From Felixounavirus LF82P5: DNA of 64,000 bases. Below, piece by piece: positions 3,411-63,585 of the stretch (position 1 is its first letter; every line of letters begins with the position of its first letter). The stretch lies in sequence record OZ035800.1. The stretch is one strand, 5' to 3'. Under the pieces are notes generated by a model. The model saw nothing but the letters and a program-made list of their open reading frames with translations, made no database searches and was not told the DNA's origin. Made by a program: the position numbers and the translations under genes.

Positions 3411-3926
3411 CTATTTAACCTCAAAAACTGGTTCAAGAACCAATATAAAGTCTACACAGTCATCTTCTTCATCCAGAATACCATCAAAGTTCTTAGGTAC
3501 AAAGTCGAAGAGGCTCATAGAATATCGGTCAGAAGTAACCCTGATAGTGTTCCCTATATTCTCTACAGTTAATATTGTACGGCTTTCTGTTACCTCACTT
3601 AGAAGATTACTCACAAAGTCATCTAAGAAGTGTTTCATCAGTGACTTGAAGCCTTTAGGGTAATCTGTACCAGAGTATGTTTCAATCTGAGGAACAAGCT
3701 TAACATTTATACTAGTCTTTGTTAAGAACGTTTTAGAGAACATGCTATCAGGTAGCTTACAAACAGTCTTTCCAGTACCTTCATGTTCAATCTCAACAAA
3801 ACCAGCTTCGTCGCCACATGTAACTATTTTAAAAGATGCTTCATTCTCATACTGTGAAGCCATAAACTTTTTAAGCATTTCTTTAAGGAAATCTGCATGA
3901 GCATCTTGTAAGTAGATATCAATCAT
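3411..3926 (-). CDS. hypothetical protein
   Basis: 171-aa ORF tightly packed in the minus-strand operon. Confidence 0.45.
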   Translation of the reverse strand: MIDIYLQDAHADFLKEMLKKFMASQYENEASFKIVTCGDEAGFVEIEHEGTGKTVCKLPDSMFSKTFLTKTSINVKLVPQIETYSGTDYPKGFKSLMKHFLDDFVSNLLSEVTESRTILTVENIGNTIRVTSDRYSMSLFDFVPKNFDGILDEEDDCVDFILVLEPVFEVK

Positions 3927-7178: not shown

Positions 7179-8282
7179 TTACTCATAATCCCTAATAACT
7201 AGCCCTACAGGAAACTGTAAAGAACCTTTACGAGTCATCTTCTGGAACTGAACAGTTAAAGGTTTCCCGATAAACTCTTCAGGATGTTCAGCAAGATACT
7301 GTTTCTTCTCGTGTGTAGTTTTCCATGAAACATCTACAAAGACGTTAGGAAGAGTCTCTACAACGAACTTACCATGACCACGCTTATCGGTCTTTACACC
7401 AGTCACTTTAAACTCTTCAGTGTGCATCTTCTTGTGCTTAATCAAGAAGTATGAACGGTGACAACACTCATAGAAGGAGTCTTCAGAGATTGAACGGTAC
7501 ATTGCACCTTCAAACTTAGCTTCAACCCACTTATCATGAGCTTCATCAAACTCTTCCCAAGAATTTACACGACGAGATTTAACAGGAACAACTTTACAGC
7601 CGTCTCTAAAGTCATTCAATGGTGAAGTCTCAATAATATCTCTACGCTCAGGCCACGTTTTAGTACTGTCACAGATATCATACCAGTAGAACTTAAGTAA
7701 GTGTCTGTCAGGATTGTCTTCATTTTTAATCATAGAGACAATATCTTCTAAGTCCCACCCATGAGCATAAATCTCACCATCAAATTCATCAACATCTTTA
7801 TGGAGCCTCAACATTGCCATAATGTCAGGTATTAGCTCAGTAGGAATTTTATAAATAGTGTTCTCACGAGAATATGCTGTAAATACACTGCCAATGCTTA
7901 AGTGTCTTGAAATTCTACAACGTACACCATCAAGCTTCGGTTGGGCATCAGCAGGGAATTTCAAATACTTTGCATGGCTAACCTTTGCAGTATCATGAGC
8001 AAGCTGTACACCTACCTTCTCAGTATTCTGTGCAGACTCTTTTGTGTAAGCATAACCTTTGCGGTCAACTTGCTTTTTATACTTAGCAGCAACTTCAAAG
8101 AGGGCTTGCTGTTCAGCATTACGCTCATTCTTTTTACCGATGTTTTTAGGTTCTGCTGTATACTCTTCAAACATCATCTTGCCATTTTCTTTACCGTAGG
8201 TTGTAATAACTTTGTCACCTACAGCAACACATGACCAGACGTTAAAAGAGCCGTCTTTATTTTGTTTGTACAGAATTGTCAT
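7179..8282 (-). CDS. ATP-dependent DNA ligase
   Basis: 367 aa; adenylation motif I KLDGVRC; size like T7-type ligases. Confidence 0.75.
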   Translation of the reverse strand: MTILYKQNKDGSFNVWSCVAVGDKVITTYGKENGKMMFEEYTAEPKNIGKKNERNAEQQALFEVAAKYKKQVDRKGYAYTKESAQNTEKVGVQLAHDTAKVSHAKYLKFPADAQPKLDGVRCRISRHLSIGSVFTAYSRENTIYKIPTELIPDIMAMLRLHKDVDEFDGEIYAHGWDLEDIVSMIKNEDNPDRHLLKFYWYDICDSTKTWPERRDIIETSPLNDFRDGCKVVPVKSRRVNSWEEFDEAHDKWVEAKFEGAMYRSISEDSFYECCHRSYFLIKHKKMHTEEFKVTGVKTDKRGHGKFVVETLPNVFVDVSWKTTHEKKQYLAEHPEEFIGKPLTVQFQKMTRKGSLQFPVGLVIRDYE

Positions 8283-56652: not shown

Positions 56653-58068
56653 ATGAGCGAGTTATTTAAACATGCGCACCTTCATGCAGGTCGAACTGAA
56701 AATGGTGCTGTAAACCATACTTCATCAATGTCTGCTCTGGTAGACTTCTACAAAGCCGCTGGCTCAAGCCGTAGCAATGTAGAAATCTTACCAGACCTGT
56801 TCTACAAAGCTTTGCGTGAGGATGTTGATGTTGCAGTTCGTATTTTACTGCATATGCGAGATGTACGAGAAGGTATGGGTGAGCGTAAAGCTTTCCGAAC
56901 TGTTTTACTTCAAGCGATTGAAGATAAAGTTTTAGAGCCTACACAGGTTCTTCGCATTATGGACAAGATTGCAGAACTTGGTCGTTTTGATGACTTCAAA
57001 ATCTTCGTAGGTACTCGTTTCGAGACAGATGCCTTCAAACATTTAGAAGCAGCATTACTAGACCCTGCAACAGCAGGTTTAGCAGCTAAGTGGTTGCCAC
57101 GAGTAAAACCACGCCACAAACAGTTTGTAAAACGTTTCTGTAAGTTTGCAAACTTAAGTGAGAAGGAGTATCGCACACTGTTATCTGCACTGTCTGATAC
57201 GGTTGAGCAAAAAATCTCTGCGAATGAGTTTGGTAAGATTGACTACAGCAAGATTCCTTCACTCGCTGCTGCACGTTACCAAAAACTCTTTAACCGTAAA
57301 GATGGGGAACGTTACAAAGCTTACATCGAGTCACTCTCAAAAGGTGAGTCTAAGATTAACGCTGGTGCTGTTTACCCATACGATGTGATTAAATCTATTA
57401 AGTATGGTAATGCAGATGTTGCTAATGAGCAGTGGAAAGCACTTCCAAACTGGATGGCAGAAGGTGAAAACATCTTGTGTATGACTGATGTTTCAAGCTC
57501 AATGTCTTGGGTGAATCTTGGCTCAATTACTGCCCTTGATATTGGTGTATCACTTGCCTTATATGTAGCAGAACGCAATACAGGTTGCTTTAAAGATGAG
57601 TTAATGGTCTATTCAACAAACCCTCATTTCATTGAACTGAGTGGTGATTTACGAAACCGTCATCGTCAGGTAATGCGTCATGTTGAATATGGTTCAACTA
57701 ACTTACAAGCAGCTTTTGACCGTATTCTTGAGATAGGTAAGAGAAACAACTTGACTCAGAAAGATATGCCAAGTAAGCTTATCATCTTCTCCGATATGGA
57801 GTTCAATCAGGTTGATGGAGCTAACGGTCGTACAAACTTTGAAGCAATTCAGAGTAAGTACAAAAAAGCTGGATATGAGATGCCACAACTAGTATTCTGG
57901 TACTTAGCAAACCGTAATGGTACTTGCGAAGTGTCTGTTAAGGATAATGGTGTAGCAATGGTATCAGGGTTCTCTCCAGCCACTTTAAAAGCTCTGCTTG
58001 GTGGTGAGAAGTTTGACCCAATCAGCGTAATGCTCAAAGCAGTAATGATTGACCGTTACATCTGGTAA
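56653..58068 (+). CDS. vWA-domain protein with N-terminal helical domain (possibly Ro60/TROVE-like)
   Basis: 471 aa; MIDAS-type DxSxS (MTDVSSSMS) with downstream Thr and LIIFSDMEF; helical N-terminal half; directly upstream of the tRNA array. Confidence 0.45.
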   Translation: MSELFKHAHLHAGRTENGAVNHTSSMSALVDFYKAAGSSRSNVEILPDLFYKALREDVDVAVRILLHMRDVREGMGERKAFRTVLLQAIEDKVLEPTQVLRIMDKIAELGRFDDFKIFVGTRFETDAFKHLEAALLDPATAGLAAKWLPRVKPRHKQFVKRFCKFANLSEKEYRTLLSALSDTVEQKISANEFGKIDYSKIPSLAAARYQKLFNRKDGERYKAYIESLSKGESKINAGAVYPYDVIKSIKYGNADVANEQWKALPNWMAEGENILCMTDVSSSMSWVNLGSITALDIGVSLALYVAERNTGCFKDELMVYSTNPHFIELSGDLRNRHRQVMRHVEYGSTNLQAAFDRILEIGKRNNLTQKDMPSKLIIFSDMEFNQVDGANGRTNFEAIQSKYKKAGYEMPQLVFWYLANRNGTCEVSVKDNGVAMVSGFSPATLKALLGGEKFDPISVMLKAVMIDRYIW

Positions 58069-58086: not shown

Positions 58087-58115
58087 TTGACAATGTGTTT
58101 GATACCCTTTAATAT
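58087..58115 (+). promoter_or_regulatory. sigma70-like promoter for the tRNA array
   Basis: TTGACA-17 nt-TAATAT; the -35 is embedded in the inverted repeat AGGGTAT...ATACCCT. Confidence 0.55.
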
Positions 58116-58233
58116 GTTCTACATAGAAACGAAATGAGAGCTTTTCTAAGATACTGAAAAATATTTTAAAAAAGTTCTTGACAACCACTAAAAAATAATG
58201 TTAAAGTGGTTACATAGAGTTTGAAAAGTTTAT

Positions 58234-58310
58234 CTCTGTTTAGCTCAGCTTGGTAGAGCGTTCCGTTTGGGGCGGTAAGGCCGGAGGTTCAAGTCCTCCA
58301 ACAGAGACCA
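58234..58310 (+). tRNA. tRNA-Pro (anticodon TGG)
   Basis: Hand-folded cloverleaf: acceptor CTCTGTT/AACAGAG, D-stem GCTC/GAGC, anticodon loop TTTGGGG, T-arm GGAGG-TTCAAGT-CCTCC, encoded CCA. Confidence 0.6.
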
Positions 58311-58317
58311 AATTAAT

Positions 58318-58395
58318 GTTCCAGTAGACAAAATGGTAAAGTCACCACTCTTTCAAAGTGGATATTTGAGGGTTCAAATCCCTTCTGGAACGCCA
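58318..58395 (+). tRNA. tRNA-Glu (anticodon TTC)
   Basis: Acceptor GTTCCAG/CTGGAAC, anticodon stem CCACT/AGTGG, loop CTTTCAA, T-loop TTCAAAT, CCA. Confidence 0.65.
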
Positions 58396-58402
58396 GTTTT
58401 GA

Positions 58403-58475
58403 CAGAAGACCAATTGCAGCAAACTTAATCTTATTCATCTGACACGAAATCGGACAAAGAAGAGATTTGGTCTGG
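58403..58475 (+). ncRNA. stem-closed structured element E1 (candidate small RNA)
   Basis: 5' CAGAAGACCAATTGCAGCAA ... 3' TTTGGTCTGG; 7-bp closing stem AGACCAA/TTGGTCT. Confidence 0.35.
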
Positions 58476-58486
58476 TCATTAAGAAT

Positions 58487-58563
58487 TGCGGGTATAGAGA
58501 AAGGGCGTCTCACATGTCTCATTAGCATGGTATCGGCAGGTTCGACTCCTGCACCCGCCTCCA
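58487..58563 (+). tRNA. tRNA-Met (anticodon CAT)
   Basis: Anticodon stem CATGT/GCATG, loop CTCATTA, T-arm GCAGG-TTCGACT-CCTGC; U1-C72 mismatch in the acceptor stem. Confidence 0.55.
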
Positions 58564-58569
58564 ATTTTG

Positions 58570-58629
58570 CAGAAGACCGTATTCAGCAACAAAATACTTT
58601 TTGCGGATAAAAGAAAAAACACGGTCTGG
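58570..58629 (+). ncRNA. stem-closed structured element E2
   Basis: 5' CAGAAGACCGTATTCAGCAA ... 3' CACGGTCTGG; closing stem AGACCG/CGGTCT. Confidence 0.35.
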
Positions 58630-58640
58630 CAATGTATTAA

Positions 58641-58717
58641 GGTTAGGAAGCACATAAGGTATGTGCGGTCGCCTGTTAAGCGAATGGCACAGGGTTCGAA
58701 TCCCTGACTAACCGCCA
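58641..58717 (+). tRNA. tRNA-Asn (anticodon GTT)
   Basis: Acceptor GGTTAGG/ACTAACC, D-stem GCAC/GTGC, loop CTGTTAA, T-arm CAGGG-TTCGAAT-CCCTG, CCA. Confidence 0.6.
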
Positions 58718-58726
58718 AATTTAAAT

Positions 58727-58814
58727 GTGTCGTTATCCCGTAGATGGTAGCGGTGGGGACTGTAAATCCCTTGTCATTGAGACTCGGTAGGTTCGACTCC
58801 TACACGGCACACCA
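58727..58814 (+). tRNA. tRNA-Tyr (anticodon GTA), long variable arm
   Basis: Anticodon stem GGGGA/TCCCT, loop CTGTAAA, 14-nt variable arm, T-arm GTAGG-TTCGACT-CCTAC, CCA. Confidence 0.6.
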
Positions 58815-58820
58815 AATAAA

Positions 58821-58898
58821 GGTTATGTAGTTTAATCTGGTTAAAATACTCCCCTGTCACGGGAGATGATGAGGGTTCAAATCCCTTCGTAACCGCCA
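58821..58898 (+). tRNA. tRNA-Asp (anticodon GTC)
   Basis: Anticodon stem CTCCC/GGGAG, loop CTGTCAC, T-arm GAGGG-TTCAAAT-CCCTT, CCA. Confidence 0.65.
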
Positions 58899-58985
58899 AA
58901 TTATAATAAGTATTTCAAGATGATGTTTTGAGATGGCTATTTAGCCCCTCCCTTAAAGAGTTCTTACGAGTATTCTTTAAAGGAG

Positions 58986-59062
58986 CAGAAGACCAAATTC
59001 AGCAAGTACGTATGATATTTTCAAGCCAATTTAATTTTGAAAAAATTTAAAACTTGGTCTGG
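58986..59062 (+). ncRNA. stem-closed structured element E3
   Basis: 5' CAGAAGACCAAATTCAGCAA ... 3' ACTTGGTCTGG; 7-bp closing stem. Confidence 0.35.
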
Positions 59063-59075
59063 CTCAACAAATTTA

Positions 59076-59207
59076 CAGAAGACCGTTTACAGCAAAACTT
59101 AAACAATCTATTTCTCCGGTAAAGAAAAGGCGAAGGTTCGATTCCTTCACTCGGCAGATGTCGAGTTGGTGTAATGGTAGCACTTAAGATGATAAACAAC
59201 GGTCTGG
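59076..59207 (+). ncRNA. stem-closed element E4 with embedded permuted tRNA-like module (candidate Y-RNA-like RNA)
   Basis: 8-bp closing stem AGACCGTT/AACGGTCT; inner helix CTTAA/TTAAG; T-arm GAAGG-TTCGATT-CCTTC; acceptor-like helix ACTCGGC-AGAT-GTCGAGT capped by a 4-nt loop; D-arm GTGT-AATGGTA-GCAC. Confidence 0.4.
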
Positions 59208-59356
59208 TAATTATCTTTGTAGATAAGTTATTAAGCTTACCTGTGAGTATGCGACCACAAAGGGTGAAAGGGTAAATTCTAGATTTAAACCCAACAAGGC
59301 ACATCGCTACAGACCTTAAGCAAGTCTGGGTAGCTTATCTACAAAGATAATTTAAT

Positions 59357-59432
59357 GGAAGTGTAGCAGAATGGTGATGCGGCAGACTTTTAATCTGACA
59401 GGCGATGGGTTCGAATCCCTCCACTTCTACCA
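59357..59432 (+). tRNA. tRNA-Lys (anticodon TTT)
   Basis: Acceptor GGAAGTG/CACTTCT, anticodon stem CAGA/TCTG, loop CTTTTAA, weak T-stem, CCA. Confidence 0.5.
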
Positions 59433-59436
59433 ATAT

Positions 59437-59513
59437 GGTTCAGTCGCAGATAAGGTAATGCAGGGGTCTCATAAGCCCTATGAATGTGGGTTCGATTCCC
59501 ATCTGAACCTCCA
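59437..59513 (+). tRNA. tRNA-Met or tRNA-Ile2 (anticodon CAT)
   Basis: Acceptor GGTTCAG/CTGAACC, loop CTCATAA, T-arm GTGGG-TTCGATT-CCCAT, CCA. Confidence 0.55.
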
Positions 59514-59514
59514 A

Positions 59515-59590
59515 GCTGGTATAGTTAAGAAGGTTATAACACTCCCCTGATAAGGGAACATCGGTGGTTCGATTCCACCTACCAGTACCA
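59515..59590 (+). tRNA. tRNA-Ile (anticodon GAT)
   Basis: D-stem GTTA/TAAC, loop CTGATAA, T-arm GGTGG-TTCGATT-CCACC, CCA. Confidence 0.6.
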
Positions 59591-59605
59591 ATTTCAATAA
59601 AGTTG

Positions 59606-59634
59606 TTGACATTGAGATGTGACCACTTTATAGT
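59606..59634 (+). promoter_or_regulatory. internal sigma70-like promoter within the tRNA array
   Basis: TTGACA-17 nt-TATAGT. Confidence 0.5.
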
Positions 59635-59837
59635 AACCTTAGTTTTCGTTGCGTAGCGTCTATTTTGCAAATTTAAAATAAATGCAAACGACAATGTTTT
59701 TCTGGCAGTAGCTTGATAGGCTAAACACCAGTGAGGTCTTCCAATCCCTCATCAAAGAATTTGGCGTACTCGCCCACGGTATGATTAATAAGGTGGGCAT
59801 CTTTAAGGGCTTTCTAAGAGAGTCTTTAAAGATTAAT

Positions 59838-59914
59838 GCACCCTTAGTTCAATTGGATAGAGCAACGGTCTTCTAAATCGTTAGTTACAGGTTCGAATCC
59901 TGTAGGGTGTGCCA
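59838..59914 (+). tRNA. tRNA-Arg (anticodon TCT)
   Basis: Acceptor GCACCCT/AGGGTGT, D-stem GTTC/GAGC, loop CTTCTAA, T-arm ACAGG-TTCGAAT-CCTGT, CCA. Confidence 0.65.
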
Positions 59915-60062
59915 AATAGTTAGCAGATTGCTTAGACGACCTTATCGGGTCTCCGTGTAAGGAGGTGGTCTGTATCTCATGTTTTCCAGAACATGTAAAT
60001 AATCTGAGAAGGGGCTTTACAGTGTTGCGAAAATACGGTAAGCTTCGAATTATAGTTTTAAT

Positions 60063-60133
60063 AGGGGTGAGCTATGGCAGCAATAGAGTCTCCAAAATTC
60101 TTGATTAGAGTTCGAATCTCTACACCCCTGCCA
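60063..60133 (+). tRNA. tRNA-like sequence with degenerate anticodon arm (possible pseudogene)
   Basis: Good acceptor AGGGGTG/CACCCCT, D-stem CTAT/ATAG and T-arm TAGAG-TTCGAAT-CTCTA, but no pairable anticodon stem and only about 68 nt. Confidence 0.3.
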
Positions 60134-60147
60134 GAACAGGTGCTTGT

Positions 60148-60552
60148 ATGAAACTTTGTAGAAAATGTTCTCAAGAAAAGCCTTTAAGCTGCTTTCATAA
60201 AAGAGGTAATGGCTATCAGTCTGCTTGCAAAGATTGTAAAGCTAAGTACTCAGCAAAGAGATACAAAGAAGACCCTACTTATAAAGCAAAAAGAAAAGTT
60301 AGGGCGAAATATGACAAAAAGAGGAACAGAGAGTTCCTTAGTAGATATAAAAAGTTTTGCAAATGCAGAATATGTGGCGAATCTGAGCCAGTAGCTTTGG
60401 ATTTTCATCACTTAGACCCTAAAGAGAAAGATTTTGCTCCAAGCAATCTTAAGACTTACTCTAGAGGCACTATTAAGCGTGAAGTCCGTAAGTGTGTTGT
60501 GCTTTGTTCAAACTGTCATAGGAAAGTTCATGCAGGACTGTTAAGTATTTAA
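60148..60552 (+). CDS. HNH endonuclease embedded in the tRNA array
   Basis: 134 aa; Cys-rich zinc-binding N-terminus and HNH core DFHHLDPKEKDF...CSNCHRKVH. Confidence 0.7.
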   Translation: MKLCRKCSQEKPLSCFHKRGNGYQSACKDCKAKYSAKRYKEDPTYKAKRKVRAKYDKKRNREFLSRYKKFCKCRICGESEPVALDFHHLDPKEKDFAPSNLKTYSRGTIKREVRKCVVLCSNCHRKVHAGLLSI

Positions 60553-60565
60553 CAGTCTTATTAGG

Positions 60566-60655
60566 GGTAGGTAGCGGCTAATGGCAGCCAAACAGTCTTG
60601 AAAACTGTTGCCACTGTAGAGATACGGTGAGGGTTCGACTCCTTTACTTACCGCC
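60566..60655 (+). tRNA. tRNA-Ser (anticodon TGA), long variable arm
   Basis: Anticodon stem ACAGT/ACTGT, loop CTTGAAA, roughly 20-nt variable arm, T-arm GAGGG-TTCGACT-CCTTT. Confidence 0.6.
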
Positions 60656-60811
60656 TAATAAGATTTAAAGCCAAGCTTCATTCGGATGTTGCTTTGGTAT
60701 CCCTCGTGTATTGTCGTACACGCACAGTAAAGCACCTAGTAGGTGTCACGGAGAAGAGATAATATCAAGCTCTCCAAAGGTTCTAGTCACCGGATTAAAC
60801 AAGACTATGCA

Positions 60812-60832
60812 AAGACCAAATTAGGTCTTTTT
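60812..60832 (+). terminator. hairpin plus T run inside the tRNA array
   Basis: AGACC-AAATTA-GGTCT followed by TTTTT. Confidence 0.4.
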
Positions 60833-60911
60833 AGAGGGCTTCTAAGGTTATTACAGCTTGTTGTGGAACCTTGTTGCTTAGGTTCTTAGAAGTTCTCTAA
60901 AAAGATTTAAT

Positions 60912-60988
60912 GCACCTATAGCCCAATTGGTAGAGGCAGCAGACTTAGAATCTGCTCAGTGTGAGTTCGAATCTCTCTAGGTGTACCA
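60912..60988 (+). tRNA. tRNA with Leu-type anticodon TAG, short variable arm
   Basis: Acceptor GCACCTA/TAGGTGT, Leu-like D-arm GCC-CAATTGGTAGA-GGC, 6-bp anticodon stem AGCAGA/TCTGCT, loop CTTAGAA, 5-nt variable region. Confidence 0.45.
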
Positions 60989-60995
60989 AATTAAT

Positions 60996-61071
60996 GCAGG
61001 TGTAGCAAAATGGTTATGCGGCTGACTCTTAATCAGTAAGACGATGGGTTCAATTCCCTCCACCTGTACCA
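60996..61071 (+). tRNA. tRNA-Lys (anticodon CTT)
   Basis: Acceptor GCAGGTG/CACCTGT, loop CTCTTAA, same weak T-arm as the other Lys tRNA, CCA. Confidence 0.5.
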
Positions 61072-61077
61072 AACATT

Positions 61078-61153
61078 GGGGTCATAGTTTATATGGTTAA
61101 AATTCGAGTTTTGCAAACTTGGGAACTGAGTTCAATTCTCAGTGACTCCACCA
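61078..61153 (+). tRNA. tRNA-Ala (anticodon TGC)
   Basis: Anticodon stem CGAGT/ACTTG, loop TTTGCAA, T-arm CTGAG-TTCAATT-CTCAG, CCA. Confidence 0.55.
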
Positions 61154-61159
61154 ATTAGT

Positions 61160-61234
61160 GCATCCATAGTTTAAACGGGAAAATTACAGTCTTCCAAACT
61201 GAGGTTGAGGGTTCGATTCCCTCTGGATGCTCCA
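61160..61234 (+). tRNA. tRNA-Gly (anticodon TCC)
   Basis: Acceptor GCATCCA/TGGATGC, loop CTTCCAA, T-arm GAGGG-TTCGATT-CCCTC, CCA. Confidence 0.6.
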
Positions 61235-61241
61235 AATTAAT

Positions 61242-61317
61242 GCTCCTATCGTATAATTGGCTATTACGGTTGCCTTGTAAGCAACTTATCAGGGTTCGAA
61301 TCCTTGTGGGAGCACCA
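61242..61317 (+). tRNA. tRNA-Thr (anticodon TGT)
   Basis: Anticodon stem GTTGC/GCAAC, loop CTTGTAA, T-arm CAGGG-TTCGAAT-CCTTG, CCA. Confidence 0.65.
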
Positions 61318-61321
61318 ATTC

Positions 61322-61408
61322 AGAGGTCAAGTGAAAGACCGCTTTGAGTCAACTGAAGACCGTAACAAATCCCACGGAGTTGAGTTAGCGGCACAACTTC
61401 AGACCTCT
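61322..61408 (+). ncRNA. stem-closed structured element E5
   Basis: Perfect 7-bp closing stem AGAGGTC/GACCTCT enclosing about 73 nt with two AGACCG motifs and internal hairpins; no T-loop. Confidence 0.3.
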
Positions 61409-61413
61409 TTCAT

Positions 61414-61488
61414 ACTCGCTTAGTTTATATGGTAAAACATCACCCTTACAAGATGAAGAAAAAGGTTCAAGTCCTTTAGTGAGTACCA
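61414..61488 (+). tRNA. tRNA-Val (anticodon TAC)
   Basis: D-stem GTTT/AAAC, loop CTTACAA, T-arm AAAGG-TTCAAGT-CCTTT, CCA. Confidence 0.55.
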
Positions 61489-61489
61489 T

Positions 61490-61567
61490 GTTCCAGTATC
61501 CCAATTGGCAGAGGATGCAAGCTCAAACCTTGTACTAGTGACGGTTCGAATCCGTCTTGGAACACCA
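61490..61567 (+). tRNA. tRNA with Leu-type anticodon CAA, short variable arm
   Basis: Leu-like D-arm TCC-CAATTGGCAGA-GGA, anticodon stem GCAAG/CTTGT, loop CTCAAAC, T-arm GACGG-TTCGAAT-CCGTC, CCA. Confidence 0.45.
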
Positions 61568-61572
61568 ATTTT

Positions 61573-61648
61573 GCAGGATTAGTTCAAATGGATAGAGCAA
61601 CAGTCTACGAAGCTGTTAATAGGGGTTCGAATCCCTTATCCTGCGCCA
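61573..61648 (+). tRNA. tRNA-Arg (anticodon ACG)
   Basis: Acceptor GCAGGAT/ATCCTGC, loop CTACGAA, T-arm AGGGG-TTCGAAT-CCCTT, CCA. Confidence 0.6.
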
Positions 61649-61667
61649 ATTTAAAGAGGCTATTTAG

Positions 61668-62225
61668 ATGAGATATTTGAAGTATGCTTCATGGATTTTC
61701 TTAGCTTTGTTAGAGCCATTTGCAGCAATCTTAGCAGTTATCTTAGCACCTTTCGTAGTTCCATTCTACAGTGAGAAGAAAGGACATCTCCCTTTTGGAT
61801 TCAGATGGATGGAGACATATGACAACCAAATTGATGGTGATAAAGGTCATGTCGAACGATGGGCTAAGATTAGAAAGATTGGTAAGCTTGGTGTCTATAT
61901 GCAGAGAGTTGGTTGGCTCTGGAGAAACAAAGCTTATAACTTCTCTTACCATGTGTTAGGAAGAGATGTAAAAGATGTTACTAAGTGGAAAGGCAATATC
62001 AATGTAAGTTCTAACCCTGAAGATAATCAGACAGGTTATCTCCTAATGTGGAACAGTAATGCTTGGGGATTATTCGCTTTTGTACCATCAATTAAAATCT
62101 TTGGTAAACAATTCTACTGGAGAATTTATGTTGGGTGGAAACTTAAAAGTGTTGTCCCAGAAGAAAGGGCATTCTCAAGGGAAAGAGTTATGTTGGCATT
62201 CTTTATTCATCCACTAAGAAAATAA
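61668..62225 (+). CDS. membrane protein of unknown function embedded in the tRNA array
   Basis: 185 aa with AGAGG Shine-Dalgarno; hydrophobic N-terminus (WIFLALLEPFAAILAVILAPFVVPF). Confidence 0.5.
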   Translation: MRYLKYASWIFLALLEPFAAILAVILAPFVVPFYSEKKGHLPFGFRWMETYDNQIDGDKGHVERWAKIRKIGKLGVYMQRVGWLWRNKAYNFSYHVLGRDVKDVTKWKGNINVSSNPEDNQTGYLLMWNSNAWGLFAFVPSIKIFGKQFYWRIYVGWKLKSVVPEERAFSRERVMLAFFIHPLRK

Positions 62226-62233
62226 AGATTTAA

Positions 62234-62309
62234 AGGGGATTAGTTTACAAGGTTAAAACCTCGGTCTTTGAAATCGAAGAAGTTGGTTCAATTCCAACAT
62301 CCCCCGCCA
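62234..62309 (+). tRNA. tRNA-Gln (anticodon TTG)
   Basis: D-stem GTTT/AAAC, anticodon stem TCGGT/ATCGA, loop CTTTGAA, T-arm GTTGG-TTCAATT-CCAAC, CCA. Confidence 0.55.
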
Positions 62310-62311
62310 AT

Positions 62312-62390
62312 GCTCCATTACTCCAATTGGCAGAGAGGCCAGACTTAAAATCTGTGTTATGTATCGGTTCGAATCCGATATGGAGTACCA
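62312..62390 (+). tRNA. tRNA with Leu-type anticodon TAA, short variable arm
   Basis: Leu-like D-arm CTC-CAATTGGCAGA-GAG, anticodon stem CAGA/TCTG, loop CTTAAAA, T-arm ATCGG-TTCGAAT-CCGAT, CCA. Confidence 0.45.
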
Positions 62391-62395
62391 AATTT

Positions 62396-62471
62396 AGCGG
62401 TATAGCATAACTGGCAATGCAACAGTCTCTGAAGCTGTCTTATTAAGGTTCAAATCCTTATGCCGCTGCCA
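62396..62471 (+). tRNA. tRNA-Gln (anticodon CTG)
   Basis: D-stem GCAT/ATGC, anticodon stem ACAGT/GCTGT, loop CTCTGAA, T-arm TAAGG-TTCAAAT-CCTTA, CCA. Confidence 0.55.
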
Positions 62472-62502
62472 CTTCTAAGGGTTCTTACGAGAGTCCTTAA
62501 AT

Positions 62503-62578
62503 GTGGCCTTATCATAAATGGTAATGACCCATGCTGTGAACATGGTCTATACGGGTTCAAATCCCGTAGGTCACCCCA
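62503..62578 (+). tRNA. tRNA-His (anticodon GTG)
   Basis: Anticodon stem CCATG/CATGG, loop CTGTGAA, T-arm ACGGG-TTCAAAT-CCCGT, CCA. Confidence 0.6.
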
Positions 62579-62583
62579 ATTTA

Positions 62584-62658
62584 TAGTCCAAGTAGCTTAT
62601 ATGGTTAAAGCGCGTGTCTGAAAAACATGAGAAGAGGGTTCAAATCCCACTGGACTAC
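62584..62658 (+). tRNA. tRNA-Phe (anticodon GAA)
   Basis: Perfect acceptor TAGTCCA/TGGACTA, loop CTGAAAA, T-loop TTCAAAT; D-arm register uncertain. Confidence 0.45.
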
Positions 62659-62676
62659 CAATTTCAAAGGTGCTTA

Positions 62677-63411
62677 ATGAAAGAGATGACAGAACAAGGT
62701 AAGGAGATTTTTAATCTCTTAAAAACCGGTAGAGGGTTTTCTAATCCCCTTATTACTGGTGCAGCAGTTCTCGGTGGAACCGTAGCTGCCTCTACATCAC
62801 TTGTAAGCTCTATTAGCTCTGTATCAGACCCTACAGTAAAGGATAAGCTTGTTGCTGCTGGACTTACAACAGTTCTGCTTAACAGCTTTACCACGAGTCT
62901 GACAAGCACTACATCAACTACCAAAACACTAACAGATTACGGTCAAAAGTCCATTGATGAGTTTTCATCACGTATGCAGGTAGCAAAAGGTTACTCTAAT
63001 GTTATGGGTGCAGCAGGTGAACAAGTTGGCTGTACACCATTTAGTGGTATTATGGGTGTTGCTACAGAGTATGGTCAAAAAGCTATTGACACGATTAACA
63101 GTACACTAGATAGTGTTAACGATGTGTTAAGTGACTTACAAGATGCTATTGATAAGGGTCTTGATACTGTTTCTGATTTAGCTAACCAAGCTGTTAGTAA
63201 GATTAATGAAGGTATCTCAAAGATTACAGCTTATGCAGATGAAGTTGTGCAGATGATTGAAGAAGAAGCTGCCCTTATTGCAGAGTACCTTAAAACGAAT
63301 ATCAATGGGTTCTTAGCAGGTATCTTACCAGACTGGTTTGATGATGCCTGTAAAACTGGTGTAATTGACACTATTGCAACACCAGAAATGAAGAGCGCAT
63401 TACAGAAATAA
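62677..63411 (+). CDS. Ser/Thr-rich protein of unknown function
   Basis: Track ORF begins with GTG inside tRNA-Phe; start moved to ATG 62677 with AAAGG Shine-Dalgarno. Confidence 0.45.
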   Translation: MKEMTEQGKEIFNLLKTGRGFSNPLITGAAVLGGTVAASTSLVSSISSVSDPTVKDKLVAAGLTTVLLNSFTTSLTSTTSTTKTLTDYGQKSIDEFSSRMQVAKGYSNVMGAAGEQVGCTPFSGIMGVATEYGQKAIDTINSTLDSVNDVLSDLQDAIDKGLDTVSDLANQAVSKINEGISKITAYADEVVQMIEEEAALIAEYLKTNINGFLAGILPDWFDDACKTGVIDTIATPEMKSALQK

Positions 63412-63412
63412 T

Positions 63413-63505
63413 GGAAGATTAACCCTAAAAGGTAAGGGAGCAGTTTGCTAAACTGCCAGTAGCTGAGAAATCGGTGTACCAGTTCAAGTCTGGTATCTTC
63501 CTCCA
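63413..63505 (+). tRNA. tRNA-Ser (anticodon GCT), long variable arm
   Basis: Perfect acceptor GGAAGAT/ATCTTCC, anticodon stem GCAGT/ACTGC, loop TTGCTAA, 20-nt variable arm, T-arm ACCAG-TTCAAGT-CTGGT, CCA. Confidence 0.65.
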
Positions 63506-63509
63506 ATTT

Positions 63510-63585
63510 GAATCCGTGACAGAAATGGATATGTACCTGTCTGCAAAACAGGTTTATAAGGGTTCGAGTCCCTTCGGATTCTCCA
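63510..63585 (+). tRNA. tRNA-Cys (anticodon GCA)
   Basis: Perfect acceptor GAATCCG/CGGATTC, anticodon stem CCTGT/ACAGG, loop CTGCAAA, T-arm AAGGG-TTCGAGT-CCCTT, CCA. Confidence 0.65.

Follow-up and report, generated by a model that had tools for sequence, protein, structure and literature searches.

The tRNA gene array of Felixounavirus LF82P5 (sequence record OZ035800.1; the whole stretch of 64,000 nucleotides that was analysed is referred to below as the window) contains three genes with leucine anticodons and a short variable loop (type I). Textbooks and recent biochemistry describe bacterial leucine tRNA (tRNALeu) as type II, the type-I tRNALeu of Streptomyces coelicolor as a rarity and the leucyl-tRNA synthetase (LeuRS) of Escherichia coli (EcLeuRS) as an enzyme of type-II tRNALeu only. 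This locus raises the question of what the three tRNAs are, where they came from and whether the host LeuRS can charge them. A preliminary description of the locus had left two options, unusual Leu isoacceptors or a wrong hand-assigned anticodon register.

Analysis with ARAGORN and Rfam recognised all three genes on the + strand: tRNA-Leu(UAG) at 60912-60988 (77 nt, anticodon 60946-60948), tRNA-Leu(CAA) at 61490-61567 (78 nt, anticodon 61524-61526) and tRNA-Leu(UAA) at 62312-62390 (79 nt, anticodon 62346-62348). ARAGORN returned the same ends and the same anticodons (TAG, CAA and TAA) as the preliminary description, as well as variable regions within the 5-7 nt given there: TCAGT in Leu(UAG) (60956-60960, 5 nt), ACTAGT in Leu(CAA) (61534-61539, 6 nt) and GTTATGT in Leu(UAA) (62356-62362, 7 nt). 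Each gene possesses A73 and an encoded CCA (60985 and 60986-60988, respectively, in Leu(UAG)). A G1.U72 wobble pair occurs in Leu(UAG) and Leu(UAA), and the T stem of Leu(UAG) contains a U50.U64 mismatch. According to the ARAGORN structure strings, all three have a 7-bp acceptor stem, normal anticodon and T arms and the shared leucine-like D arm that had been noticed before, with a 3-bp stem and an 11-nt loop (CAATTGGTAGA or CAATTGGCAGA). The Rfam tRNA model (RF00005, gathering score 29) matched the genes over model positions 1-71 with 58.9 bits for Leu(UAG), 43.6 bits for Leu(CAA) and 47.5 bits for Leu(UAA) (E-values 3e-11 to 5e-7). The hallmarks of a canonical type-II tRNALeu are missing from all three: none has a long arm of at least 10 nt with a stem, and instead of G9 and a purine at position 13 they carry A9 and C13.

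The tRNA sets of related phages, to which the preliminary description had pointed for comparison, contain the same three genes labelled as tRNA-Leu. Record KP869106 annotates three tRNA-Leu of 77, 78 and 79 nt at the corresponding places, and in Shigella phage Sf13 (Mooglevirus) tRNAscan-SE calls Leu TAG, CAA and TAA at syntenic positions. For the related phage Sf14, the isotype models of tRNAscan-SE put Leu first for all three tRNA-Leu (67.4, 49.1 and 60.2 bits); the 2025 paper on the Sf14 tRNAs is silent on the variable arm (PMC12482277). Thus, ARAGORN, Rfam and the annotation of relatives concurred on unusual Leu isoacceptors and, together with the calls in Sf13, refuted a wrong register. 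These results confirmed that the three phage genes are genuine leucine tRNAs of the type-I class. They are also the only Leu tRNAs of the phage, in an array of 27 tRNA genes (58234-63585, all on the + strand; ARAGORN) that serves all 20 amino acids.

The array matched 403 phage records, and at least 80% of it was covered in 200 of them. The matches come from Felix O1-like phages, whose hosts are Escherichia, Salmonella, Shigella, Citrobacter and others. The Gln-Leu(UAA)-Gln block was at least 90% identical in 252 of 256 matching phage records, Felix O1 included, and Leu(CAA) is only one base apart from its Sf13 copy, in the variable loop. Felix O1 and its relatives, which are common phages of E. 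coli and Salmonella, depend solely on three type-I tRNALeu. The conservation of these genes in hundreds of enterobacterial phages argues for a function there.

With Leu(UAG) as the blastn query, matches were obtained to genes annotated as tRNA-Leu in phages that infect Mycobacterium, Streptomyces, Rhodococcus, Gordonia, Pseudomonas, Acinetobacter, Enterococcus, Lactobacillus, Cronobacter and Klebsiella as well as in one crAss-like phage. Nine of these arrays and that of T5 were run through ARAGORN, and their tRNALeu were counted by loop length. Exclusively short-loop tRNALeu were found in Mycobacterium phage Cali (three genes), in Streptomyces phage Paradiddles, Cronobacter phage CR3, Pseudomonas phage 16Q, Acinetobacter phage 313 and crAss cr111_1 (two genes each) and in Lactobacillus phage Bromius (one gene). 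Enterococcus phage EFDG1 has one short-loop and one long-arm tRNALeu, Rhodococcus phage Trina one short-loop and two long-arm tRNALeu, and T5 a single long-arm gene and no short-loop gene. By core identity, which was computed with the variable region removed, the nearest kin of the LF82P5 genes were foreign type-I tRNALeu rather than other isoacceptors, namely those of Mycobacterium, Rhodococcus, Cronobacter, Pseudomonas and Streptomyces phages (76-80%). Core identity reached at most 81% with actinobacterial genes and at most 86% with other viral type-I genes, and was 53-60% with E. coli tRNALeu.

The genes of this family share the signature U8-A9, a G10C11C12 stem with C13, the D loop AAYUGGYAGA, A26, the variable loop NCAGU, A73 and a T arm close to GUGAG-UUCGAAU-CUCAC, frequently with G1.U72. 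The D-arm signature (U8-A9 / C12-C13 / AAYUGGYAGAG) is present in the three LF82P5 genes as UAGCCCAAUUGGUAGAGGC, UAUCCCAAUUGGCAGAGGA and UACUCCAAUUGGCAGAGAG, and their loops TCAGT, ACTAGT and GTTATGT agree with the family loop, which has 5-7 nt and U48 (rarely C48) as its last base. When viral contigs were scanned for the family D arm with a Leu anticodon, a variable region of 5-23 nt being permitted, at least 120 loci were obtained, and every one among the matches listed (80 of these loci) had a loop of 5-7 nt. In the same set of at least 120 loci, ARAGORN found 181 short and 29 long tRNALeu, in a sample that is biased to type I, together with 71 long and 2 short tRNA-Ser and 34 long and 1 short tRNA-Tyr. 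In the Paradiddles record, a 'tRNA-Ser (tga)' of 70 nt annotated at 1758-1827 is too short for a long variable arm. When viral contigs were scanned for a D-loop pattern that occurs in both types, the estimate was about 17 short versus about 105 long tRNALeu, i.e., a long excess of about 6:1. Type I is a substantial minority of phage tRNALeu, not the rule. The proposition that all phage tRNALeu are type I was ruled out by the type-II gene of T5, by the presence of both types in EFDG1 and Trina and by this excess.

Within the viral tRNALeu collected, A9/C13 was found in 155 of 190 type-I genes and G9/R13 in 155 of 170 type-II genes. Among 199 unique viral type-I tRNALeu, A73 was present in 198 and U48 in 195, and the variable loop measured 5 nt in 178, 6 nt in 16 and 7 nt in 4. 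Their stem cells were paired to 97.7%, with many double changes, although ARAGORN detection itself favours paired stems. The family occurs in tRNA arrays of phages whose hosts belong to at least four bacterial phyla.

Members of the family were also found on bacterial chromosomes. A search through 185,579 species genomes for the combination of TGGCAG, a Leu anticodon, a short loop and the T loop, which represents a sample and not a census, yielded at least 120 loci. ARAGORN confirmed a type-I tRNALeu in 77 of 120 loci examined; the other 43, without an ARAGORN tRNA at the match, comprised 42 chance matches and one true gene (L271) that is cut by the locus edge. Among the 80 loci with titles, 44 of 54 true matches belonged to Actinomycetota. 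The carriers include Nocardia, Mycobacterium, Rhodococcus, Gordonia, Arthrobacter, Corynebacterium, Bifidobacterium, Amycolatopsis, Pseudonocardia, Streptomyces and a streamlined actinobacterium of 1.46 Mb. The actinobacterial gene was almost always the sole tRNA of its 8-kb locus and mostly had the anticodon UAA, but also CAA, UAG or CAG. About half of the non-actinobacterial matches were located inside arrays of 5-29 tRNAs. This demonstrated that dozens of actinobacterial genera have type-I tRNALeu as a chromosomal gene in single copy, far more commonly than in the published view of a rare case. Two published remarks agree with this: S. coelicolor has a type-I tRNALeu(CAA) (PMC6614811), and in Mycobacterium tuberculosis, only tRNALeu-2, -3 and -5 have been singled out as having a long variable loop (PMC11541572), which suggests that the remaining Leu isoacceptors are short-looped. 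Between nucleotides 8 and 48, only about 3 of 43 positions distinguish one Actinomycetaceae gene from the phage Leu(UAG).

For a covariance model (R1), 57 distinct single-copy actinobacterial chromosomal type-I tRNALeu were aligned, with no phage sequence included. In this alignment 98.8% of cells pair versus 74.7% in shuffles and only 34-52% in slid controls, and both-side changes occur in 18 of 20 pairs. The type-I family is under structural selection. The R1 model scored Leu(UAG) with 82.6, Leu(CAA) with 72.1 and Leu(UAA) with 68.3 bits, compared with 52.3 bits for the best remaining tRNA of the window, 37.0 bits for the T5 tRNALeu and 56.2 (leuX), 51.5 (leuW), 49.9 (leuZ) and 37.8 bits (leuQPV) for E. 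coli tRNALeu. The separation of 68.3-82.6 bits from at most 52.3 bits for the other window tRNAs indicates that the three phage genes belong to the actinobacterial-type family. When Leu(UAG) was compared by blastn with 5,426 complete E. coli genomes, no match was obtained, which points to the lack of a host or prophage copy. What had been described as a local curiosity thus turned out to be part of a widespread type-I tRNALeu family on Actinomycetota chromosomes and in phage arrays. The phage Leu genes were not derived from host type-II tRNALeu and represent a distinct sequence family that has spread among phage arrays across host phyla. The simplest reading would be that the family arose or persists in Actinomycetota and was captured by phages, its spread between phage arrays being possible because LeuRS tolerates type-I tRNALeu.

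At the position of Leu(UAG), Sf13 carries a different type-I tRNALeu(UAG) (3587-3664) with U8-G9, the D arm GACGG..ACCUA and the loop UGUUU, which obtained only 26.9 bits with R1. It resembles genes of Paradiddles (7780-7855) and of Pseudomonas phage 16Q (10330-10407), so that a second type-I tRNALeu family appears to exist in phages of distant hosts. The presence of a different type-I gene in the syntenic Sf13 slot indicates that the type-I state outlasted a gene replacement.

Recognition by E. coli LeuRS has been reported to involve A73, A14, the A15-U48 Levitt pair, G18G19 and A20a as well as the contacts G18:U55, G19:C56 and U54:A58, whereas neither the anticodon nor the long arm is needed, variants without anticodon and variable arms being still active (PMC9976931; Fan et al., NAR 2019, PMC6614811). 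The long arm had been regarded in the preliminary description as an identity element of tRNALeu, which for the E. coli enzyme is at odds with its reported dispensability (PMC9976931). A73, A14, A15, G18G19, A20a, U48 and a T loop with U54...A58 (UUCGAAU) are present in all three phage tRNAs, and their D loop AAUUGG(U/C)AGA is letter-identical to the E. coli tRNALeu D loop. The similarity to the E. coli genes leuZ, leuW, leuX and leuQPV extends to the anticodons UAA, UAG and CAA, the 3-bp D stem and the D-loop core AAUUGGUAGA in addition to A73 and U48, and leuZ also shares G1.U72. However, the E. coli tRNALeu have variable arms of 13-15 nt, G9 and R13, and their T loop is UUCAAGU in 4 of 5 distinct sequences and UUCGAGU in leuX. 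They also differ from the phage genes at the anticodon-loop positions 32, 37 and 38. Because all the reported EcLeuRS elements are present and the long arm is reportedly dispensable, it is probable that the phage type-I tRNALeu are charged by the host LeuRS and used in ordinary decoding. Should they function in enterobacteria in this way, EcLeuRS does accept natural type-I tRNALeu.

In the same array, the long arms of tRNA-Tyr (58727-58814, variable region 15 nt) and of the two tRNA-Ser (60566-60655 and 63413-63505, 20 and 21 nt, all on the + strand; ARAGORN) are retained, as had been observed before. Bacterial tyrosyl-tRNA synthetase also uses the long variable arm. Loss of the arm would be possible in Leu and not in Ser or Tyr, which would keep their arms in the same arrays because only LeuRS tolerates arm loss.

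Several observations weigh against charging by the host enzyme. Only one type-I tRNALeu from a bacterium has been tested biochemically, and there EcLeuRS 'could not leucylate ScotRNALeu(CAA) completely'; the enzyme is described as charging type II only, and placement of residue 47n in the arm, which is impossible in the short-loop phage tRNAs, is counted as an E. coli recognition feature (PMC6614811). A large variable-arm loop is favoured by the leucine-specific domain of EcLeuRS. The anticodon loops depart from those of the host isoacceptors as well. In Leu(UAG) (60944-60950) the loop is CUUAGAA versus host UUUAGGU, with A37 and thus without G37 for m1G37, and in Leu(CAA) (61522-61528) it is CUCAAAC versus host UUCAAAA, with C38 and without the A36-A37-A38 motif that is given for TrmL recognition in an identity review (PMC9976931). 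Host anticodon-loop modifications may therefore differ owing to A37 in Leu(UAG) and C38 in Leu(CAA). Energy-only folding of the three tRNAs was not distinctive (z -0.5 to -1.6), and the minimum free energy fold of Leu(UAA) was not a cloverleaf; such folding is uninformative here, as usual for unmodified A+U-rich tRNAs.

The S. coelicolor tRNALeu(CAA), whose variable loop is ACAGC, receives leucine from the LeuRS of its own species and has the short loop, A73, U8:A14 and G18G19 in common with the phage tRNAs; its loop A44-C45-A46-G47-C48 fits the family motif NCAGY (Fan et al., NAR 2019, PMC6614811). In contrast to the phage genes, whose U48, like that of E. coli tRNALeu, is able to pair with A15, it carries C48, and a Streptomyces relative (L308) has a D loop of 12 nt (CAATTGGCAGCA) compared with 11 nt in the phage genes. 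As a conjecture, C48 or the longer D loop of Streptomyces tRNAs might explain the failure of EcLeuRS there, since this enzyme reads A15-U48 and the placement of G18G19. The two settings also differ in that the S. coelicolor gene is chromosomal and its own LeuRS accepts the tRNA, whereas the phage genes belong to a virulent coliphage whose host LeuRS is reported to fail on the S. coelicolor tRNA.

With charging by the host LeuRS, the pathway would be an ordinary one. Early in infection the + strand of the array would be expressed as transcripts that host RNases process, the CCA being already encoded; host LeuRS would then add leucine by reading A73 and the core of D loop and Levitt pair, ignoring the anticodon and the extra arm. 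Leu(UAA) and Leu(CAA) would decode UUA/UUG, and Leu(UAG) would decode CUA/CUG and possibly CUU. In 64 open reading frames of the window (38.8% G+C), the shares of the Leu codons were 24.6% for UUA, 13.8% for UUG, 27.8% for CUU, 10.0% for CUA and 17.0% for CUG. E. coli uses CUG for roughly 50% of its Leu codons. Codons of the UUA/UUG and CUA/CUU type are over-represented in the phage compared with CUG-rich E. coli.

A further question is why these tRNAs are of type I. One answer, which is compatible with charging by the host LeuRS and which we consider rather unlikely, is that the arm-less shape was selected as an anti-defence trait, with the consequence that toxins or nucleases docking on the long class-II arm miss tRNALeu. 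Extended to phages in general, arm-less actinobacterial-type tRNALeu would constitute a device that was repeatedly acquired and kept for the single class-II tRNA with a synthetase tolerant of arm loss, unseen by nucleotidyltransferases of the MenT/AbiEii type and by arm-directed endonucleases; this extension is similarly doubtful. MenT3 anchors on the long variable loop, and the abortive-infection toxin AbiEii appears to favour class-II tRNAs. T-even infection is said to cut host tRNALeu1 near the variable arm (an observation attributed to Yudelevich, 1971). The recurrence of type-I tRNALeu in phages of Proteobacteria, Firmicutes and Actinomycetota and in Bacteroidota-associated crAss, with Ser and Tyr staying long, would fit such selection, as would the Sf13 Leu(UAG) slot that was kept type I through replacement by a second-family gene. 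The altered loop positions 32, 37 and 38 relative to the host isoacceptors bear on the idea of anticodon-nuclease evasion. On the other hand, an arm-dependent defence directed at tRNALeu is not known for E. coli or Salmonella, and many phage arrays, such as that of T5, keep type-II tRNALeu, as the estimate of about 17 short versus about 105 long genes illustrates. Moreover, the family is a plain chromosomal gene in Actinomycetota, so that a defence rationale is unnecessary. If an arm-less shape did protect against tRNA-directed toxins, this would be a structural route of counter-defence beside the known route through the anticodon loop, and it would have the corollary that E. coli LeuRS charges natural type-I tRNALeu, contrary to the type-II-only statement.

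It is improbable that the phage Leu tRNAs are no substrate of enterobacterial LeuRS at all and act as inert, horizontally inherited passengers, decoys or regulatory RNAs. That EcLeuRS left the type-I tRNALeu(CAA) of S. coelicolor uncharged (PMC6614811) speaks in favour of this, as does the lack of a similar tRNA in the 5,426 complete E. coli genomes, according to which the host enzyme never served such a substrate. Passengers would, however, hardly be expected to occupy fixed positions across Ounavirinae, in an array found in 403 records and covered to at least 80% in 200 of them. The Leu(UAA) block is conserved in nearly all matching records, and the few differences seen all lie in loops. In addition, A73, A15-U48 and the exact E. 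coli D loop were retained, and the three genes are the phage's sole Leu tRNAs, with anticodons suited to its preferred A/U-ending codons.

That the type-I bodies carry another amino acid and the phage recodes some Leu codons is extremely unlikely, and direct evidence for it was not found: with A73 and A35-A36, a type-I body resembles tRNAPhe in some respects, but G3.U70 (Ala) and the long arm or G73 (Ser) are missing, other synthetases mostly read anticodons that are absent here, Leu ranked first in the tRNAscan-SE isotype models for Sf14, the biochemically tested family member accepts leucine, and UUA, UUG and CUA make up 48% of the Leu codons in ordinary-looking phage open reading frames. 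Equally hard to credit is an origin of the short loops by local deletion of the arm in a captured host type-II tRNALeu, or as artefacts or pseudogenes, since the D-loop sequence shared with E. coli tRNALeu is outweighed by a core identity of 53-60% to E. coli against up to 81% to actinobacterial and up to 86% to other viral type-I genes, by the separation of the two types through A9/C13 and G9/R13 and by the agreement of ARAGORN, Rfam and, in relatives, tRNAscan-SE on genes.

Among E. coli phages, T4 also encodes a tRNALeu. The tRNALeu(UAG) of T5, another phage of E. coli, likewise lies in a large array of tRNA genes that includes HNH endonuclease genes; it is, however, of type II, with 85 nt and a variable region of 13 nt, unlike the type-I genes of LF82P5. 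By description, the tRNALeu(TAG) of a mycobacterial tRNA array resembles the phage genes in having a short loop and in belonging to a mobile array with an HNH endonuclease, in what is a passing mention for Mycobacterium (Behra et al., 2019, PMC6582537). Animal mitochondrial type-I tRNALeu, e.g., human mt-tRNALeu(UUR), can be likened to them, also by description, through the short loop and the identity elements A73 and A14 (PMC9976931). They differ from the phage genes in their dedicated mitochondrial LeuRS and their degenerate, floppy structure.

The three genes were already annotated in public records, and type-I tRNALeu as such was known from mitochondria and S. coelicolor. A literature search found no paper that describes type-I tRNALeu for coliphages or as a class found across phages, which is no proof of novelty, and none that connects the type-I tRNALeu of phages with those of actinobacteria or assays them with enterobacterial LeuRS. 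The finding runs counter to a generalisation of the textbooks and to a recent biochemical statement in a directly testable manner, with a likeliest mechanism that is ordinary. For tRNA engineering, the phage genes also provide natural scaffolds of short tRNALeu.

Upstream of the first tRNA of the array, a consensus scan detected two candidate sigma-70-like promoters on the + strand, TTGACA-17-TAATAT at 58087-58115 and TTGACA-18-TAAAGT with TG at 58178-58207; a third candidate, TTGACA-17-TATAGT, is located at 59606-59634. The total of promoter-like sites in the array region was not above that in shuffles, so these matches remain candidates only. The gene directly upstream of the array (56653-58068, + strand) encodes a 471-aa protein with DUF2828, DUF7788 and vWA (PHROG 850, 'RNA-binding protein') that is possibly Ro/TROVE-like. 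This gene occupies the same place in Sf13, and the tRNA array of Streptomyces phage Paradiddles includes a 'Ro RNA binding protein', which suggests a recurrent association of such RNA-binding proteins with phage tRNA arrays. Inside the array, an HNH endonuclease open reading frame (PHROG 2255) at 60148-60552 (+) is flanked by tRNA-Trp on one side and tRNA-Ser on the other, and this arrangement is also present in T5, CR3, crAss cr111_1 and mycobacterial arrays.

The spacers between the tRNA genes contain four exact copies of CAGAAGACC-N5-CAGCAA (58404, 58571, 58987 and 59077, + strand) where 0.6 are expected. Each copy is followed 40-120 nt downstream by a complementary GGTCTGG, with which a long-range stem could form (region 58404-59211), and the fourth (59077) encloses a tRNA-like fragment at 59099-59149 with an Rfam tRNA score of 22 bits. 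An inverted repeat with 22-nt arms, 95% complementary and 100 nt apart, lies at 59209-59352, directly upstream of the tRNA-Lys at 59357. Two other tRNAs of the array, tRNA-Trp (60063-60133) and tRNA-Met (58487-58563), gave no match with the Rfam tRNA model at E ≤1. The tRNA-Met has an unpaired 1:72 position and hence an initiator-like look, and the tRNA-Trp is just 71 nt long, like that of T5, with a reduced D arm and the anticodon at position 30.

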